A stretch of 9,411 nucleotides of DNA from positions 1 to 9,411 of IMG/VR virus record IMGVR_UViG_2606217106_000011. One strand, 5' to 3'. The notes under the pieces are model-generated. The model was not told the DNA's origin. It made no database searches and saw nothing but the letters and a program-made list of their open reading frames with translations. The stretch is from a virus. Lineage: Duplodnaviria; Heunggongvirae; Uroviricota; Caudoviricetes. Shown one piece after another: positions 1-6,571 of the stretch (position 1 is the first letter of the stretch; each line of letters begins with the position of its first letter). Made by a program: the position numbers and the translations under genes.

Positions 1-1
1 C

Positions 2-29
2 AAAAAAATCCCGCGCTGGGAGACGCGGG
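2..29 (-). terminator. Intrinsic-terminator-like hairpin, oriented for leftward (minus-strand) transcription
   Basis: On the + strand an A7 tract (2-8) precedes the inverted repeat CCCGCG (10-15) / CGCGGG (24-29) with an 8-nt loop. Read on the minus strand this is a GC stem followed by ATTTTTTTG. Close to the window edge; stability not computed. Confidence 0.3.
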
Positions 30-98
30 CGGCAAGGAATAAACAACAAAACGTGAAGTAATATTTCAGCTGGCGAATAATATCCGACAGTAATCACT

Positions 99-121
99 CT
101 GCGCAATAGCGCGGCCTTTTT
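99..121 (+). terminator. Intrinsic-terminator-like hairpin upstream of the esterase gene
   Basis: Stem CTGCGC (99-104) / GCGCGG (109-114) including one G-U pair, loop AATA, then CC plus T5 (117-121). Short stem; no folding energy computed. Confidence 0.3.
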
Positions 122-223
122 CGTATTGCGGGCTGTTGTCTATCTTCTGCCATTATCCTGTAACTTCCGGACTTCAGCCCGCTCCTCATTTTACTCACAA
201 TATTATCCAGGCCGGGAGGATTC

Positions 224-1450
224 ATGGCATTTAAACACTATGACGTGGTCAGGGCGGCGTCGCCGTCAGACCTTGCGGAGCGACTGACACAAAAACTGAA
301 GGAGGGGTGGCAGCCATTTGGCAGTCCGGTGGCCATCACGCCTTATACCCTGATGCAGGCCATTGCGGCGGAAGGTGATGTCACCACACCTGTGGTGGTG
401 AAGCCGTCGGATGGAGAAGGCGCAGTTATCAGCACCACCAGCAACTCGGAGTATTACTTTGTTGTTGCCCTGGCCGGGCAGTCAAACGGTATGGCGTATG
501 GTGAAGGGCTTCCGCTGCCGGAGACATATGACCGTCCGGACCCGCGCATTAAACAGCTGGCGCGTCGCAGCACTGTCACGCCGGGTGGTGCGTCCTGTAA
601 CTACAATGACATTATTCCTGCGGACCACTGCCTGCATGATGTTCAGGATTTGAGTAAGTTTTCACACCCGAAAGCCAGCGCAGCTCAGTATGGATGCGTG
701 GGGCAGGGATTACATATCGCGAAGAAATTGTTGCCGTTTATTCCGGCGAATGCCGGTATTCTTCTGGTTCCGTGCTGCCGTGGTGGTTCTGCATTTTTGG
801 CGGGCGATGAAGGTACCTTCAGCGAATCCACCGGCGCAAGCGAGACCTCGGCACGCTGGGGTGTAGATAAGCCACTGTACAAGGACCTGCTTACCCGTAC
901 TCAGGCCGCACTGAAGGCTAACCCTAAAAATATTCTGCTTGCAGTGGTCTGGATGCAGGGCGAGTTTGATTTGAAACAGGGTGCATACGCCACTCAGCCG
1001 GGGCTGTTTGATTCCATGGTGGAAAAATATCGTTCTGACCTGTCGGAATTCGGAGGTCAGTGTCTCGGGGGCTCTCCGTCATCGGTTCCCTGGATTTGTG
1101 GCGACACGACCTACTACTGGAAGCAGACTTATTCTTCGCAATACGATGCGGTGTATGGTGCATACAAGACGAAATCCGCAAAAAAAATCTTCTTTGTGCC
1201 GTTTAGACGGATGAAAACGGGCGAAATGTGGGTACCAACGAGCCGTCAGAAGATCCGGATGTTGCGGATATTGGGTATTACGGAGCCGGTGGTCGAACGG
1301 ACGCCAAAACCTGGACGACGGCCGACCGTAAAACGCATTTTGGATCATGGGCACGTCGTGGGATTATTTCCGACCGTCTGGCAACGGCGATTCTTGTGCA
1401 TGCCGGGAGAACCGCTGAATTCATTACCGGAAAACAGCCTGATACGGTGA
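224..1450 (+). CDS. nanS-p: Prophage NanS-p-like sialate 9-O-acetylesterase, N-terminal and catalytic part; frame lost near 1204-1220, so the 3' tail of this ORF is probably out-of-frame read-through
   Basis: ORF 224-1450 with SD GGGAGGA (214-220) before the ATG. The N-terminus (MAFKHYDVVRAASPSDLAERL...) resembles the DUF1737-type module of these esterases, and ALAGQSNGMAYGEG carries the GQSN block of SGNH/SASA esterases. Position upstream of S-R-Rz matches Stx-type lambdoid prophages. The final ~80 codons are arginine-rich and look non-native. Confidence 0.7.
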   Translation: MAFKHYDVVRAASPSDLAERLTQKLKEGWQPFGSPVAITPYTLMQAIAAEGDVTTPVVVKPSDGEGAVISTTSNSEYYFVVALAGQSNGMAYGEGLPLPETYDRPDPRIKQLARRSTVTPGGASCNYNDIIPADHCLHDVQDLSKFSHPKASAAQYGCVGQGLHIAKKLLPFIPANAGILLVPCCRGGSAFLAGDEGTFSESTGASETSARWGVDKPLYKDLLTRTQAALKANPKNILLAVVWMQGEFDLKQGAYATQPGLFDSMVEKYRSDLSEFGGQCLGGSPSSVPWICGDTTYYWKQTYSSQYDAVYGAYKTKSAKKIFFVPFRRMKTGEMWVPTSRQKIRMLRILGITEPVVERTPKPGRRPTVKRILDHGHVVGLFPTVWQRRFLCMPGEPLNSLPENSLIR

Positions 1451-2184
1451 AGCCCACCGGACCTTCCGGTGAAGGTACGGAGAGAGAGCCGGAAGCCCCG
1501 GTCAGTAACCGAACCCTGATGAGTCTGCTGGCGTCCGGCGAAGACCTGGCATCACAGGGCTGGCGCTATTATCACAAACCGGCGAGCGGAGACAATGTTA
1601 ACAAAAACATTGCTGAAGCGGTGGTCAGTGATGCGGGGGCTACGGGAGGTAAGGCCCTGCAACTGAATAAACCGGAAAACCACATCTGGTTTCTGGAGCA
1701 TGATGCAGCCGGACAGGGAGTGGAGTTACTGAAGAAGGGGGGACGTGTGAGCGTACGGTTTAAGTTGCCGGGTTCACTGGTGCCGAATCGGTTTGCCCTG
1801 GGCATTTACTGGCAGTTGTCGTCCCTGCCGGAGGGAGTGACGCTGGCAGAGGAAGGCAACGACATGCTGATGTCCTTCTTCCTGCAGACGGATGCGACGA
1901 ACCTGAACGCGATGTACCACAAGAAGCCGAATGCGAAGCTGGATACGTTCGGGGTCTTTGATAACGGATGGCACACACTGGCTTTTGAGTTTGCCGGAAA
2001 CAACAGCATTCAGGTGACGCCGGTACTGGATGAGAAACGGGGGACGCCGTTCACACTGGTGAAATCTCCGGCATCAGGGGCGGCGGACAAACTGCAACTG
2101 ACAGGCATATCAAAGGCGGCGACATATACGCTGCTGATTGACAGTGTGAAGGTGGAAGTGAACAACGCGGATGCCGCGGCATGA
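1207..2184 (+). pseudogene. C-terminal portion of the same NanS-p-like esterase, in a different frame (frameshifted remnant, or continuation if the shift is a sequencing error)
   Basis: This frame is open from 1207, directly after an in-frame TAG at 1204-1206, to the stop at 2182-2184. The translation (TDENGRNVGTNEPSEDPDVADIGYYGAGG...) looks protein-like. Span 224-2184 is 1961 nt, one nucleotide short of a multiple of three, consistent with a single-base deletion. Confidence 0.65.
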
Positions 2185-2319
2185 TAAAAAAAGCCGCCAG
2201 CGGCAGGAACGGAAGCTGGCGGAGGTAATCCCAATGGAGAATGTAAAGAAAAGATGCTTTCGTATATCGGTTTTTTAAATGAAAGCAGTTCTCATTGTCA
2301 ACCATAACGGTAAGAAACT

Positions 2320-2502
2320 ATGACATTTATTCATCAGGTGATGCTGTACTTCTGTACGGCGGTCTGTGTGCTGTATCTTCTTTCGGGTGGGTACAGGGCA
2401 GTGCGCGATTTCTGGCGCAGGCAGATTGATAAAAGGGCCGCAGAGAAAATCAGTGCCAGTCAGTCAGCCGGAACAAAACCCGAAGAGCCTCTCATTCCGT
2501 AG
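2320..2502 (+). CDS. Hypothetical small membrane protein (60 aa)
   Basis: ORF with ATG start and one hydrophobic segment (VMLYFCTAVCVLYLL) followed by a basic/polar tail. Weak SD. No motif recognised. Confidence 0.3.
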   Translation: MTFIHQVMLYFCTAVCVLYLLSGGYRAVRDFWRRQIDKRAAEKISASQSAGTKPEEPLIP

Positions 2503-2539
2503 CAACTTTCTTAACAACACCTTTCAACGAGAAAATACC

Positions 2540-2809
2540 ATGTCAGAAATAAAATCGCTGGTCACTGCTGAAGCAGTGAAGGAAGTCCTGCGCTCTGAAG
2601 AAGTCAGAAGCGCACTGAAACAGCAACTTCGGCAGAACCTTGAGGCGCGTCTTGATGCAGAAGTGGATGCCATTCTGGATGAACTGCTGGGCGCACCGAC
2701 TGTTCCGGAGCCGGAAGGCATTGCGGATGACAGTGCTGTTTCAGATGGCGTCGGGTCTCAGCCTGATGGTAGCAGTGAGCCTCAGCCTGACGGCGAAATG
2801 ATGATGTAA
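2540..2809 (+). CDS. Hypothetical acidic protein (89 aa)
   Basis: ATG at 2540, starting MSEIKSLVTAEAVKEVLRSEE; predicted helical N-terminal half and a D/E/P/S-rich acidic C-terminus. Weak SD (GAGAAA). The longer ORF-track version from 2366 has no better start signal. Confidence 0.45.
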   Translation: MSEIKSLVTAEAVKEVLRSEEVRSALKQQLRQNLEARLDAEVDAILDELLGAPTVPEPEGIADDSAVSDGVGSQPDGSSEPQPDGEMMM

Positions 2810-2884
2810 CCATGCGCAGGGGCTGTCGGTGTGAGCTGATGCCCCTCTTGTTGTTGTGAGCTTCCGGATTGCGGGAGACGGGGT

Positions 2885-3100
2885 ATGTACCAGATGGAAA
2901 AAATCACAACAGGTGTGTCATACACCACGTCAGCGGTGGGGACGGGCTACTGGTTCCTGCAGCTGCTGGACAGGGTTTCCCCGTCTCAGTGGGCGGCAAT
3001 AGGCGTACTGGGGAGTCTGCTGTTTGGTCTGCTGACGTACCTGACGAACCTGTATTTCAAAATCAGAGAGGACCGTCGTAAGGCGGCTCGGGGAGAGTAG
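2885..3100 (+). CDS. S: Class II holin, phage-21 S21-type pinholin with dual-start motif
   Basis: 71-aa product with close identity to the S21 pinholin as recalled ([23 protein letters not shown]...[22 protein letters not shown]). Two Met codons (M1, M4) as in the S21 antiholin/holin pair; two TM segments; SD GGGAGA (2873-2878). Confidence 0.9.
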
Positions 3101-3103
3101 ACG

Positions 3104-4096
3104 ATGAATAAAAAATATGAACTGGTTGTAAAAGGGATAAATCATTACCCGGATAAGATAGCTGTTACTGTGGCACTGGAAATTGGTGGGTATCCGCCAC
3201 TGTTGTTGCCAAATGTGGCGATTAGTCTTGACCGTACTGAAGGTGCCACGCTGGAGTTTTACGAAGCTGAGGCGAAAAAGCAGGCGAAGCAGTTTTTCAT
3301 GGATATTGCTGCCGGGTTATGTGAAGGGGATGAACCGTTGCCAGAAAAGCGCCCCATAATTTTAGAGGCGCAGGATGTGTTGATAACCTACAAAGGAAAG
3401 CTACCGGGAAGAATTACTGATGCTCTGAAGATGCCGCCGTCAACACTGCGGTCAGAAAAAGATGATATTGAATCACGCATTGAAAAACTGGAGTGCTGTG
3501 TTACTGAATTGAAAAAAAGCACCCCAACAAAAAATGAGGTGCTTGCAGCAGATGAAATGAAAGAAACTATTCTTGAATTAGCTGCGCGCCTGAACTGCGC
3601 TTCACTGTTGAAAGAGCATTTTCAGCAGCCTGAAAAAAAACGCCGCGATGAGCAGCAGTTTGCGGCGTTTTACGATTATTGCCGGAAAGTGATGAGCAGA
3701 AATCTCGCAGAGTGTTTCAGTATTCATAATGATAATTTCAGTGAGCTGGAATGGGAGTGTAACCGGCCATCCTTTGTTGTATCCGGTGATGGTGGGAAAA
3801 TAACCATCTCAGAAAATGGGAAAGTAACACCTCCATCGCACCAGCACAGTGAGGAGCTCATTGAATTTGCCATTGATTACCTGAAGAACAATAAAAAGCA
3901 GGGGCTGATGAAGCGCGTTGGCCGTTGCATGGGATATCTGCAGGTAGCTGCTGAGATTGAAGCGCTTGCCAGTGGTGCAGACAGGGATACTGCGGTGCGG
4001 GAGGTCCTTCTTCGTGATTTCAATACTCCGCCCTTTAAGAAAGAGCCTGATGGCTGGCTCCAGCCGGGGCTGAATTATCTCAAAGGGCGGATATAA
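3104..4096 (+). CDS. Hypothetical protein (330 aa), AT-rich insertion between holin and endolysin; function unknown
   Basis: Long uninterrupted ORF. ATG 3104 lies 3 nt after the holin stop and uses the SD GGGAGAG (3091-3097) inside the holin 3' end. Visibly lower GC than the flanking lysis genes (by eye). No Walker A, HExxH, HNH, lipobox or signal peptide seen; charged, partly coiled-coil-like middle region. Confidence 0.75.
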   Translation: MNKKYELVVKGINHYPDKIAVTVALEIGGYPPLLLPNVAISLDRTEGATLEFYEAEAKKQAKQFFMDIAAGLCEGDEPLPEKRPIILEAQDVLITYKGKLPGRITDALKMPPSTLRSEKDDIESRIEKLECCVTELKKSTPTKNEVLAADEMKETILELAARLNCASLLKEHFQQPEKKRRDEQQFAAFYDYCRKVMSRNLAECFSIHNDNFSELEWECNRPSFVVSGDGGKITISENGKVTPPSHQHSEELIEFAIDYLKNNKKQGLMKRVGRCMGYLQVAAEIEALASGADRDTAVREVLLRDFNTPPFKKEPDGWLQPGLNYLKGRI

Positions 4097-4102
4097 GTAC
4101 TG

Positions 4103-4417
4103 TTATCTGTTACCTGATAATTGTCTGAACAGGCGATCTTTTTGTGATTTGGCGTAATGATTATCCCATTCGCAATCAAGGTAACTTAATTCTTCATTTA
4201 ACCAGTCATCTATATTGTCTTTCAGGCGAAGGAGCAAGGTTGGTGTTAATGCTCCGGATATAATACTGAGAGTTGCAGTAGTGAGAGCTCCATACGGTTC
4301 AGCCTGAATGGCCTTTACTGCTTCGTGTTCTTGCGGGAGGAGTAAAAGGCATTCCGATTTTACCCGCTCATTTATGGCTTGCAGGTATAAATCATAATTA
4401 TGTTGATGGTTATGCAT
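4103..4417 (-). CDS. Hypothetical protein (104 aa), convergent partner of the 330-aa ORF; function unknown
   Basis: Minus-strand ORF starting at the ATG complementary to 4415-4417, with SD GAGGA 7 nt upstream on that strand. Its stop (4103-4105) lies 6 bp from the stop of the 3104-4096 gene. AT-rich like its neighbour. The longer ORF-track version (to 4669) overlaps the endolysin start and has no SD. Confidence 0.6.
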   Translation of the reverse strand: MHNHQHNYDLYLQAINERVKSECLLLLPQEHEAVKAIQAEPYGALTTATLSIISGALTPTLLLRLKDNIDDWLNEELSYLDCEWDNHYAKSQKDRLFRQLSGNR

Positions 4418-4545
4418 AGTTAATCCTCGACTGGAATTGTCAGATATATTTTCAGCCAGCAGATAAAACGCCAGTGCCCACCACTGGCAGGCTGAAGACT
4501 TAACATATCCAGGGGGCCGGAACCGATAAATCCTGATAAATATCC

Positions 4546-5079
4546 ATGAACGCAAAAATCCGATACGGCCTGTCGGCTGCCGTTCTGGCGCTGATTGGTG
4601 CAGGGGCGTCTGCGCCTGAAATCCTCGACCAGTTTCTTGACGAAAAAGAAGGCAACCACACCACGGCATACCGTGATGGTGCGGGTATCTGGACCATCTG
4701 CCGTGGTGCCATCATGGTGGATGGCAAACCTGTCGTTCCGGGCATGAAGTTGTCGAAGGAAAAATGCGACCAGGTTAACGCCATTGAGCGTGATAAAGCG
4801 CTGGCGTGGGTGGAGAAAAACATCAGAGTGCCGCTGACCGAACCCCAGAAAGCGGGGATCGCGTCATTCTGTCCGTACAACATTGGTCCCGGTAAGTGTT
4901 TCCCGTCGACGTTTTACAGACGAATTAATGCAGGTGATCGCAGGGGAGCATGCGAAGCGATTCGCTGGTGGATTAAGGACGGTGGCAGAGACTGCCGTAT
5001 TCGCTCAAACAACTGTTACGGTCAGGTATCCCGTCGCGACCAGGAGAGTGCGCTGGCGTGCTGGGGAATTGACAGATAA
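4546..5079 (+). CDS. R: SAR endolysin (T4-lysozyme-like muramidase with N-terminal signal-anchor-release domain), R21-like
   Basis: N-terminal Gly/Ala-rich weakly hydrophobic segment (YGLSAAVLALIGAGASAP), then the catalytic E-x8-D-x5-T arrangement in EGNHTTAYRDGAGIWTICRG. Sits in the lysis cassette with pinholin and Rz/Rz1. No recognisable SD directly upstream. Confidence 0.9.
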   Translation: MNAKIRYGLSAAVLALIGAGASAPEILDQFLDEKEGNHTTAYRDGAGIWTICRGAIMVDGKPVVPGMKLSKEKCDQVNAIERDKALAWVEKNIRVPLTEPQKAGIASFCPYNIGPGKCFPSTFYRRINAGDRRGACEAIRWWIKDGGRDCRIRSNNCYGQVSRRDQESALACWGIDR

Positions 5080-5169
5080 GCAGAATATTTTGCTGAAAAA
5101 TGCGGTTTGCTCACACGGACGGATAACACGAAATCCTGCGAACTGACAAAAACTAAGTGAATAAAAGTA

Positions 5170-5210
5170 AAAACCCCGTTTGTTGGCTGCAAGCGGGGTT
5201 TTGTGTTTCT
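5170..5210 (+). terminator. Intrinsic-terminator-like hairpin (possibly bidirectional) between R and the small-peptide/Rz genes
   Basis: Stem CCCCGTTTG (5174-5182) / CAAGCGGGG (5190-5198), 9 bp with one G-U pair and a 7-nt loop, followed by TTTTGTGTTTCT (5199-5210) and preceded by an A-rich tract. Confidence 0.5.
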
Positions 5211-5235
5211 GACCTTGGATAAGGCAAGGGAGAAC

Positions 5236-5418
5236 ATGGAAAAGTATAAACGAATTCTGTTGAGGTTGACTATGAAAAACGGCCTTGAACTGAAAGCGCC
5301 AGTAACTGATGACATCAGCAGAGCGCTGGCTTTTGCTATTAAGTGGGTGGCGGTTGGTATCGCTGTGTCTCCGATACTGTATGGGCTGGCAAAACTGGTC
5401 ATTGCGCTGAAATCGTGA
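5236..5418 (+). CDS. Hypothetical small membrane protein (60 aa)
   Basis: ATG 5236 preceded by SD AGGGAGA. The C-terminal half is a hydrophobic helix (ALAFAIKWVAVGIAVSPILYGLAKLVIAL). Paralogous to the following 28-aa ORF. Confidence 0.4.
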   Translation: MEKYKRILLRLTMKNGLELKAPVTDDISRALAFAIKWVAVGIAVSPILYGLAKLVIALKS

Positions 5419-5429
5419 ACTTTAAAAAG

Positions 5430-5516
5430 ATGAGTGCTGAACTTATTCGGGCAATGGCATTTGCCATTCGTATTGTGGCCATTGCTGTTCTGGTCTGGGC
5501 AATCCGTTGGTGGTGA
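5430..5516 (+). CDS. Hypothetical hydrophobic peptide (28 aa), paralogue of the preceding ORF
   Basis: ATG 5430 to TGA 5514-5516, product [28 protein letters not shown]. Aligns with residues ~38-55 of the 5236-5418 product (RALAFAIKWVAVGIAV vs [16 protein letters not shown]). Its stop is 1 nt before the Rz ATG (5518). Below the ORF-track size cutoff; weak SD. Confidence 0.3.
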
Positions 5517-5517
5517 T

Positions 5518-5985
5518 ATGAACCGTGTTCTGTGTGTGGTGATTATTGTCCTGCTGGTAGCCTGTGGTGTGCTTAGTCTGGGGCTGAATCATTACCGCGA
5601 TAACGCCATCACCTACAAAGCGCAGCGCGATAAAAAAGCCAGAGAGCTGGAGCTGGCAAACACAACCATTACTGACATGCAGCAGCGTCAGCGTGATGTT
5701 GCTGCGCTGGATGAAAAATACACAAAGGAGTTAGCCGATGCGAGAGCTGAAAATGAAACTCTGCGCGCTGACGTTGCCGCTGGTCGCCGCAGCCTGCGTA
5801 TCAACGCCACCTGTCCAGGTTCCGTGCGTGAAGCCACCGGCACCGCCCGCGTGGATAATGCAACCGGCCCCCGACTGGCAGACACCGCTGAACGGGATTA
5901 TTTCACCCTCAGAGAACGGTTGATGACAATGCAGAAGCAACTGGAAGGGGCGCAGGACTATATCCGCACTCAGTGTATTAACTAG
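5518..5985 (+). CDS. Rz: Rz i-spanin (inner-membrane spanin subunit)
   Basis: Strong similarity to lambda Rz as recalled ([61 protein letters not shown]...[27 protein letters not shown]). N-terminal TM helix. ATG 5518 chosen over the GTG-extended ORF-track start at 5434. Confidence 0.9.
5738..5923 (+). CDS. Rz1: Rz1 o-spanin (outer-membrane lipoprotein spanin subunit), embedded in Rz in another frame
   Basis: Embedded ORF with SD AAGGAG (5725-5730); lipoprotein signal ending in Cys (LPLVAAAC) and the proline-rich block [30 protein letters not shown], as in lambda Rz1. Confidence 0.85.
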
Positions 5986-6008
5986 TATTTTTGTTATCCG
6001 GAGAATGC

Positions 6009-6233
6009 ATGAAGAAATTACTGGTAACCGTAAAGCCTTTTCAGGGAACAATTCCGTTCCGTATTTTGCAGCGTGGTCGTGTTCTTGTTGAAGGTTCGTT
6101 CAGTGGTAAATGTACGCAATTACACTCCCGGACCTTTCAGGTGAATGCCACGAATGAAGAGCTAACCGTTGAGTGTACGATGAATGCCGCTAAATGCCGC
6201 ATGGTATCCGCTGCATTACAGCCAGTGTCTTGA
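6009..6233 (+). CDS. Hypothetical protein (74 aa)
   Basis: ATG 6009 with SD GGAGA 5 nt upstream, immediately after the Rz stop. No motif recognised; not lambda Bor. Confidence 0.45.
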   Translation: MKKLLVTVKPFQGTIPFRILQRGRVLVEGSFSGKCTQLHSRTFQVNATNEELTVECTMNAAKCRMVSAALQPVS

Positions 6234-6267
6234 GCGACCTTATTAACCATGCGCGGTATTGTCGCCG

Positions 6268-6380
6268 TATCCCCGCATTAACAGAGACCGCAGCCCGACC
6301 GGGAGACTCCTCTGCGCGAGTGTGCGGGGATAATCAAAAACGATACACACCGGGGTTTACCGCGTTAACGGAGCGCGGCG
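6268..6380. repeat. Structured non-coding segment: 10-bp perfect inverted repeat plus a direct-repeat motif CCGC(A/G)TTAAC(A/G)GAG
   Basis: TATCCCCGCA (6268-6277) is the exact reverse complement of TGCGGGGATA (6323-6332), 45 bp apart. CCGCATTAACAGAG (6273-6286) recurs as CCGCGTTAACGGAG (6360-6373). No convincing ORF in this ~330-bp gap; overlapping ORF-track entries look like noise. Confidence 0.4.
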
Positions 6381-6571
6381 TTGTCCCCTCATGGTCGCTG
6401 GTCCGGTGCGATGGTGGAAGAAACCGGACGATGTGTTACCTCGCAAGCTCTGTTATGTCATGTGTCTGATTTGTGATTTAAGTCGGATAATTGTCGTTGC
6501 CATTAAGCAGAGGATTGATGACCGACAGGGTGGCATTGTTAGAATAAGACGTATTCTTATCTGTGCCGGGA

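Follow-up and report, generated by a model that had tools for sequence, protein, structure and literature searches.

A widespread, unannotated non-coding module downstream of the lysis cassette of lambdoid phages that probably acts at the RNA level

Long polycistronic phage transcripts carry cis-acting structures between blocks of genes, among them the RNase III sites of T7 (R1.1 type) and the sib hairpin of lambda. Each is built from a pair of stacked helices that an asymmetric internal loop separates, and neither a promoter nor a terminator belongs to it. Another kind of short conserved stretch is known from the modular theory of lambdoid phages, in which 'boundary' or 'linker' sequences are thought to be conserved solely as recombination substrates. 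Here we describe a non-coding module of ~180 nt that resembles both, found in a stretch of 9,411 nt from a Caudoviricetes record (IMG/VR IMGVR_UViG_2606217106_000011, positions 1 to 9,411; the whole stretch is called the window below), which is the late region of a lambdoid, Shiga toxin (Stx)-phage-like Escherichia prophage. Its genes follow the order Rz, a 74-aa open reading frame (ORF), a gap of 338 bp (6234-6571), a TonB_C lipoprotein gene, DUF3950, HNH and the small terminase, and the module lies in the gap. Lambdoid phages also encode regulatory small RNAs (sRNAs), namely AgvB and AsxR (PMC4104026), StxS (PMC7547250) and PreS/LPR1 (doi 10.1101/2024.10.31.621285), and the known ones belong to one of two places, the early left operon or the pR' moron site, which lies upstream of the lysis genes (PMC4104026; PMC7547250; doi 10.1101/2024.10.31.621285; doi 10.64898/2026.05.13.724894).

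The gap proved to be a composite of two independent units, A (6249-6431) and B (6432-6571). When annotated phages were compared with the window by BLAST, homology in the ASU11-type Stx2a phages extended from 5581 to 6428 and was followed by a different terminase, while in Lys8385Vzw and JLK-2012 it began at 6252 or 6248 and ran on into the lipoprotein gene, a Rha or KilA-N gene replacing the small ORF upstream. Since the overlap of approximately 6249-6431 is common to the ASU11-type phages, JLK-2012 and Lys8385Vzw, unit A, hereafter the module, is discrete and has sharp mosaic borders. A covariance model of the module matched the window once, at 6247-6434, with 219.8 bits and on the + strand only. 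A preliminary description of the window had taken the whole gap as one stretch of structured non-coding DNA, unusually long for a phage late region. Its view of the DNA as non-coding and structured was borne out, but it had treated two unrelated units as one, and a gap of this length is usual in this phage family. Natural truncation variants of the homologous DNA also occur: in contigs L243, L246 and L247 (~3973-4058) the module breaks off precisely where the 3' arm of helix P1 ends, at the equivalent of 6332 of the window, and unrelated sequence follows, and in L232 homology to the window stops at 6208, within the small ORF.

The module was present in 398 phage records, with 72-100% identity, and in 1911 of 5426 complete E. 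coli genomes, about a third of them, at 4547 places (median 2, maximum 9 copies per genome), none of which carried an annotation beneath it. The phage lambda copy occupies 46,867-47,037, between bor and lambdap78 (nhmmer E = 1.4e-38; covariance model, 127 bits), and that of phage 434 lies between bor and a DUF3950 gene, abutting the latter; the module of the window is ~80-83% identical to these two counterparts, about the same as the flanking coding sequence. In 933W-type phages the module lies 113 nt ahead of the terminase gene, and in prophage Sp10 of E. coli O157 Sakai it begins 9 nt past the Rz stop codon. Rz was found upstream on the same strand in all 125 copies where it was visible. Among ~141 copies, the nearest upstream neighbours were Rz (75), bor on the minus strand (28), Rha (16) and KilA-N (9), and the nearest downstream neighbours were DUF3950 on the minus strand (53), ASU11-type terS (29), the TonB lipoprotein gene (24), Nu1 (15), 933W terS (6) and phrog_2571 (4); even with the three terminase types counted together (50), no same-strand gene family occupied the constant downstream place that a riboswitch or 5' leader would call for. 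In a sample selected by similarity to Rz, and so independent of the module sequence, 71 of the 73 loci with sufficient downstream DNA carried the module, all on the + strand and 12-1738 nt past Rz. A core-motif search of one genome per species returned genuine matches in Escherichia only, the rest being chance or lambda control DNA. Assemblies of Cohnella, Arcanobacterium, Pseudomonas, Flavobacterium, Pedobacter and other genera contained contigs, often of ~3.5 kb and at least 21 in number, whose module score equalled that of lambda (127 bits); these are almost certainly contamination with lambda control DNA.

The module is non-coding. Of its 86 distinct variants, which make up the alignment used throughout, 48 had stops in all three + frames; lineages were separated by 1-nt insertions or deletions, and the mean minor-allele frequencies at codon positions 1, 2 and 3 of the annotated ORF frame were 0.093, 0.098 and 0.054, the third position being the least variable. 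Mechanical ORF calls at 6194-6469 (91 aa) and 6391-6642 (83 aa) had neither a Pfam match nor a coding signature, in agreement with the earlier judgement that the gap holds no credible ORF, and a search for a coding gene spanning the region by Pfam, reading frames, stops and codon positions found none. In 933W-type phages, 81-aa ORF calls across the module (e.g. ArgO145 gp69, L005 1976-2221) constitute phrog_6954, named 'Rz-like spanin'. This family is the same DNA as the module; its reading frame is not maintained outside the 933W-type lineage, and two frames of the window are needed to match its profile, one for positions 4-48 and the other for 53-80. We read it as an ORF-calling artefact, or at most as specific to that lineage. 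PHROGs and RefSeq attach the label 'Rz-like spanin' to two unrelated things, phrog_6954 and phrog_1267, the latter being the TonB_C lipoprotein (6578-6904), and both names look positional, not functional. A 10-codon leader ORF (ATG 6249 to TAA 6279-6281, MRGIVAVSPH) was considered and rejected, as its start is ATG, GTG, CTG or absent according to the variant and it has no Shine-Dalgarno (SD) sequence; it is shortened to 2 codons in the lambda/933W type.

Five helices, P0, P1, P1b, P2 and P3, were examined across the alignment (Table 1), of which P0, P1 and P3 were found by RNAalifold unaided and P1b and P2 were added by us. In this structure, 97.3% of 3136 cells held standard pairs, as compared with 33-62% when the partners were slid by 1-3 columns. 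Nine pairs showed changes on both sides, a count reached in 1 of 500 shuffles, and this double-change measure was rarely fooled by relatedness in the tool's own trials. The Rz-selected set, aligned with the covariance model, gave 97.5% paired cells and 8 double-change pairs (0 of 500 shuffles), in an alignment that is fitted to the structure and hence leans towards it. Helices kept with compensatory and wobble changes beyond the controls are what is generally asked of a conserved structured RNA.

All repeats listed in the preliminary description were found at the positions it gave, and two of them correspond to helices of the module. P1 is its 10-bp perfect inverted repeat, whose arms are 45 nt apart; when the gap was shuffled with dinucleotides preserved, only 8 of 1000 sequences had a perfect inverted repeat this long or longer (10 bp or more, loop no longer than 60 nt). 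Double changes were seen in P1 at pairs 25/83, 26/82 and 30/78 (C-G to G-C in the lambda type), together with a C-G to U-A change in the PhiR46_1 type. Pair 11/99 of P0 was seen as UA, UG and CG, and P1b was retained in four variants with a 9-nt loop deletion. P2 is the second stem-loop of that description, in which GGGG (6352-6355) and CCCC (6385-6388) enclose CCGCG (6360-6364), the loop TTAACGGAG and CGCGG (6374-6378); other lineages have CUGUG/CGCAG (phage 434) or UCUCAU/AUGGGA (933W type) there, still as hairpins, and three inner pairs showed double changes in the model-based alignment. The best covarying pair was 165/187 of P3 (GC 47, UA 21, GU 11), with G.U as intermediates of a G-C to U-A change. 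The most conserved stretch, ATAATCAAAAACGATACACACC, was also conserved in BLAST matches, independent of the search pattern, to lambda, 434 and the 933W type. A third repeat was set aside: the direct repeat with copies CCGCATTAACAGAG (6273-6286) and CCGCGTTAACGGAG (6360-6373) is probably due to chance, since 16 of 200 shuffles contained a 14-mer repeated directly with no more than 2 mismatches, which is not significant, and it was not retained in relatives. Variation gave no support to three tertiary pairings that we considered (UUAA with UUAA between loops, CAUG at the 5' edge with CAUG in the P2-P3 spacer, and CACC with GGUG of the P3 loop), and resemblances to Chi, ops, boxB and CsrA sites were, by eye, too weak or not conserved.

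The pairing is maintained on the + strand, which has the same sense as the Q-dependent late transcript. Paired positions contained 264 G.U cells and 25 A.C cells, and among variants present in at least 3 sequences G.U occurred at 18 pairs and A.C at 3 (one-sided binomial, ~7e-4), while the unpaired columns had no matching mutational bias (C to T in 17 of 25 columns, G to A in 20 of 30). As an A.C cell on the + strand is a G.U on the other strand, the excess of G.U indicates that it is the + strand that keeps the pairs. Selection on the + strand structure appears fairly likely.

Several observations weigh against reading the module as a functional RNA. An unbiased scan of 18,528 column pairs (G-test with average product correction) was dominated by haplotype linkage, and only pair 165/187 of P3 ranked high in it, at 21st, so that formal support from covariation is thin; the covariation check proposed in the preliminary description gave compensatory changes in the helices and little in the unbiased scan. 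By minimum free energy (MFE) the module was no more stable than shuffled sequence (z = -0.04 for the + strand, -0.72 for the - strand), and when variants were folded singly roughly half of the MFE folds had P0 and P1, while P3 was present in 16 of 86. Common variants include uncompensated mismatches at pair 29/79 (U-C, 11 sequences) and pair 165/187 (G-A, 5 sequences). Divergence is shallow, the family being limited to phages of Escherichia and Shigella with 72-100% identity. Lastly, the peaks of Hfq cross-linking and analysis of cDNA (CRAC) in Sakai O157 adjoin the module and none lies on it, and RNA interaction by ligation and sequencing (RIL-seq) in lambda lists LPR1, LPR2 and 6S only, both assays not being designed for cis elements of late transcripts; as the late operon is silent in lysogens, absence from Hfq data obtained there is weak evidence. 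Rfam 15 gave no match at the gathering threshold across the whole window and, at E <= 10 within 5900-7300, only the chance-level mir-1421 and ceN70, and a tRNA/tmRNA scan gave no match.

Taken together, we infer that the module is RNA in nature and acts in cis, and consider the chances about even that it is a + strand RNA structure working within the late transcript. Lying between the lysis cassette, which it closely follows, and the packaging genes, and in every case oriented like the late operon, it would fold on the + strand into a 5' domain (P0, P1 and P1b), a highly conserved linker, the P2 hairpin of variable sequence and P3 with its conserved loop. The RNA would be made as part of the Q-dependent late transcript, and the module may mark the 3' boundary of the lysis-gene segment as a processing and/or stability element. 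An intercistronic site of the RNase III type, or one that blocks exonucleases, could uncouple the fate of the lysis-gene RNA from that of the long stretch leading to the packaging genes, where bor, p78 and DUF3950 are encoded on the other strand and translation in the late sense is therefore often lacking. The presumed occurrence only within a longer + transcript, placement after the lysis genes or + strand morons, and stacked helices with an asymmetric loop and two hairpins fit a cis-acting processing or stability signal akin to the T7 RNase III sites or to stabilising hairpins at 3' ends; a role specifically in RNA processing or stability is possible but less likely than not, and we put it forward tentatively. 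The likeness to T7 R1.1-type sites and sib lies in P0 (7 bp), a 5 x 7 nt loop and P1 (10 bp), 17 bp in all, and is a resemblance only: there is no similarity in sequence or by covariance model, the upper helix of the module caps a 45-nt branched loop instead of a small one, and the module has two further hairpins and a long invariant linker. It seems unlikely that the module is a new class of functional RNA, self-cleaving or a dock for a nuclease or another protein, that splits the late transcript at the boundary between lysis and packaging genes; if it were, the splitting would set the relative amounts and timing of lysis and virion proteins. Any functional RNA in the late transcript would add a post-transcriptional layer to the balance of lysis and virion production, and in Stx phages the same transcript bears the toxin genes. 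Lambda and the Shiga-toxin phages are among the best-studied genomes, yet the ~180-nt module is unannotated in them or mislabelled as protein; as a functional RNA it would also set right an annotation error that keeps recurring and serve as an exact landmark for the sites of moron insertion that flank it.

The explanation that survives best beside this is that the module is a joint at the level of DNA, a 'linker' where co-resident lambdoid prophages swap lysis, moron and packaging modules, with similarity preserved by frequent homologous exchange and gene conversion and the hairpins incidental. It has in common with the lambdoid linkers that it is short, conserved and non-coding and sits just where exchangeable modules meet, between mosaic breakpoints, homology breaking off sharply on both sides against differing neighbours, and the recombination site suggested in the preliminary description survives in this form. 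Up to 9 copies per genome, haplotype blocks that dominate the covariation, and recombinants within the module (mismatched P3 arms in three copies) are all as such exchange would have it. The same is true of contig L021, in which two copies (5058-5242 and 6005-6184, ~950 bp apart) flank a phrog_2571 gene upstream of lambda-type Nu1/A, an arrangement that is expected from recombinational exchange or deletion and would permit loss or gain of the moron by recombination between the copies. The orientation lock is expected here too, the flanking modules being co-oriented. However, in the module, unlike in the lambdoid linkers, base pairs are maintained on one particular strand: from a neutral linker one would not expect a preference for G.U over A.C (18 versus 3 pairs) when the unpaired columns are unbiased, nor 97% pairing with compensatory transversions, nor the exchange of P2 for other hairpins at the same place. 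A purely recombinational joint is therefore somewhat unlikely; the two readings are compatible, and if the module were only a joint it would still be a concrete example of the linker sequences long postulated in modular phage evolution.

A trans-acting sRNA cut from the late transcript, with the invariant AAUCAAAAACGAU(A/G)CACACC as a seed against host or phage mRNAs or as a sponge for host sRNAs, is a doubtful explanation. It would account for the linker, and not the helices, being the most conserved segment, and several regulatory sRNAs are already known from lambdoid phages. Against this, a consensus scan found no promoter-like site in or just before 6249-6431 and no terminator-like site in the module, on either strand; P3 is followed by GATGTGTTACC in the window, with neither terminator hairpin nor U-tail, and the sole terminator-like match of an intrinsic terminator scan over 5900-7300 was at 6045-6060, inside the small ORF. 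With no promoter or terminator of its own, the module is not a self-contained sRNA gene and is most likely made within the Q-dependent late transcript; of the small RNA proposed in the preliminary description, the RNA structure is supported and the independent gene is not, since its upstream flanks also differ between contexts. Moreover, no site complementary to the invariant linker, the supposed seed, or to the P3 loop was found elsewhere in the 9.4-kb window, the module is absent from the Hfq-bound RNAs of the lambda and Sakai data described above, and ~180 nt with five helices is atypical of an Hfq-dependent sRNA.

The known sRNAs of these phages (AgvB and AsxR, RF02702 and RF02703; StxS; 6S/LPR2; PreS/LPR1; Pas; STnc100) are likewise non-coding, from the same phage group and in part from the late operon, but they differ from the module in map position and in being short and terminator-ended. 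AgvB, AsxR and STnc100 are at the pR' moron site, which in Sakai Sp10 is 4-5 kb upstream of the module (Rfam); PreS/LPR1 lies between ea10 and ral, LPR2 and 6S near pR', and the Pas sRNAs beside the holin operon. The Rfam models detected AgvB and STnc100 in Sakai Sp10 and nothing on the module there or in the window. Identity with the EcOnc peaks of Tree et al. (2014), StxS, PreS/LPR1, LPR2 or the Pas sRNAs was excluded by position; the Sakai Hfq-CRAC peak EcOnc11, for example, is ~25-75 nt past the module on the opposite strand, old and new coordinates having been calibrated with AgvB. EcOnc10, EcOnc11 and EcOnc12 (Tree et al. 2014; Sp12, Sp10 and Sp9) have equal read mass and are very abundant. 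Their place is immediately 3' of the module, at an intrinsic terminator on the minus strand (CTGCTGTGACTCCAACACGGCAG and then T7; L230, NC_002695.2 1946940-1947010), which sits downstream of a DUF3950/YlcI-like gene and whose sequence is absent from the window, and they look like an sRNA that stems from that gene's 3' untranslated region.

It is quite improbable that the module is regulatory DNA, a promoter or operator, for leftward accessory genes on the - strand. The records of HK630 and HK629 annotate a minus-strand promoter, TGGACA-15-TACAAT, inside the module (L311 924-950 for HK630, over the P1 5' arm and the P1 loop), which corresponds to lambda 46,882-46,908, upstream of bor, and is presumably the bor promoter; bor on the minus strand is also the upstream neighbour of 28 copies. 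The hexamers are confined to the lambda/933W-type variant, the window and most variants reading CGGTCT-15-TACGGC at this place, and the window has no bor gene; a 27-bp promoter in one lineage explains neither 183 conserved bp nor the + strand G.U bias. In bor-carrying phages, then, the module would double as promoter DNA on the other strand. Finally, a small protein gene of the 81-aa phrog_6954 family, or its frameshifted remnant, can hardly be maintained, for although 933W-type phages have the intact ORF annotated by RefSeq and PHROGs, the window translation matches the profile with E = 1.3e-13 and 38 of 86 variants have a stop-free + frame, that match is split between two frames, every + frame is closed in the other 48, widespread lineages differ by 1-nt indels, third codon positions vary least, a start codon or SD is absent in many contexts and Pfam has no match.

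Table 1. Features of the window discussed in the text (positions are those of the 9,411-nt window)
Feature	Position	Strand	Basis and remarks
Conserved non-coding module (unit A)	6249-6431	+	Sharp homology borders in different contexts; candidate structured RNA, late-transcript sense
P0, GTATTGT / ACGATAC	6256-6262 / 6340-6346	+	Closes the 5' domain; RNAalifold unaided; 99.2% of cells paired
P1, 10-bp inverted repeat, TATCCCCGCA / TGCGGGGATA	6268-6277 / 6323-6332	+	98% of cells paired
P1b, CGCAG / CTGCG	6289-6293 / 6312-6316	+	Within the P1 loop; 98.4% of cells paired
Most conserved stretch, ATAATCAAAAACGATACACACC	6330-6351	+	Part unpaired (P1-P0 internal loop), part P0 3' arm
P2 hairpin, outer GGGG/CCCC, inner CCGCG/CGCGG	6352-6388	+	Variable sequence, fixed position
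P3, GTCCGGT / ACCGGAC	6401-6407 / 6423-6429	+	15-nt conserved loop GCGATGGTGGAAGAA
Unit B, upstream region of the TonB_C lipoprotein moron	6432-6571	+	Common only to phages with that gene
Sigma-70 promoter-like site, ATGACC-16-TAGAAT	6518-6545	+	Consensus scan; TG directly upstream (extended -10)
Palindrome over and just past the -10	6541-6557		Arms of 6 bp, AGAATA / TATTCT, in the window; putative operator
Rz (i-spanin), final gene of the lysis cassette	5521-5985	+	Pfam Phage_lysis, E = 1.6e-50; invariant upstream landmark of the module
74-aa ORF with SD GGAGAA and ATG	6009-6233	+	phrog_2571, E = 2.3e-28, profile positions 100-172 of 291
TonB_C lipoprotein-like gene, signal peptide ...LVMGC	6578-6904	+	Pfam TonB_C, E = 1.3e-14
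DUF3950 (YlcI/YnfO family)	7036-7236	-	Pfam DUF3950, E = 4.2e-20; commonest downstream neighbour of the module elsewhere
HNH endonuclease	7278-7643	+	Gene list of the window
Small terminase	7934-8497	+	Gene list of the window

Unit B comprises the promoter, a possible operator and the leader of the TonB_C lipoprotein moron. As the control region of a moron it is ordinary, and phages that carry the lipoprotein gene share it at 97-100% identity. The earlier proposal that the gap regulates this moron therefore applies to 6432-6571 and not to 6249-6431. In the window AGAATA (6541-6546) and TATTCT (6552-6557) overlap the -10 hexamer TAGAAT (6540-6545), as had been noted. In an alignment of 11 distinct versions the G at 6551 was unique to the window, the other 10 having T, which extends the palindrome from 6+6 to 8+8 (AGAATAAG-A-CTTATTCT). 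The diverged moron copy of Perceval keeps TGT(T/C)AGAAT, the ribosome-binding site and the start region and is without the 3' half of the palindrome. Like the lambdoid morons bor and lom, the unit has its own promoter-like site and an accessory envelope protein gene between late-region landmarks, present in some relatives only; it differs from them in having no terminator-like site after the gene, between 6904 and 7036. The best promoter-like match of the region, TTCACA-16-TATAAT (11/12), lies at 6705-6732 on the minus strand, antisense within the lipoprotein gene and directed towards the gap.

The 74-aa ORF on the other side of the gap resembles just the C-terminal part of the longer moron family phrog_2571, and its identity to that part in L021, which has the long homologue, is 34%. 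It is either a mini-gene made of this domain alone or what was left by a deletion that also took an upstream copy of the module.

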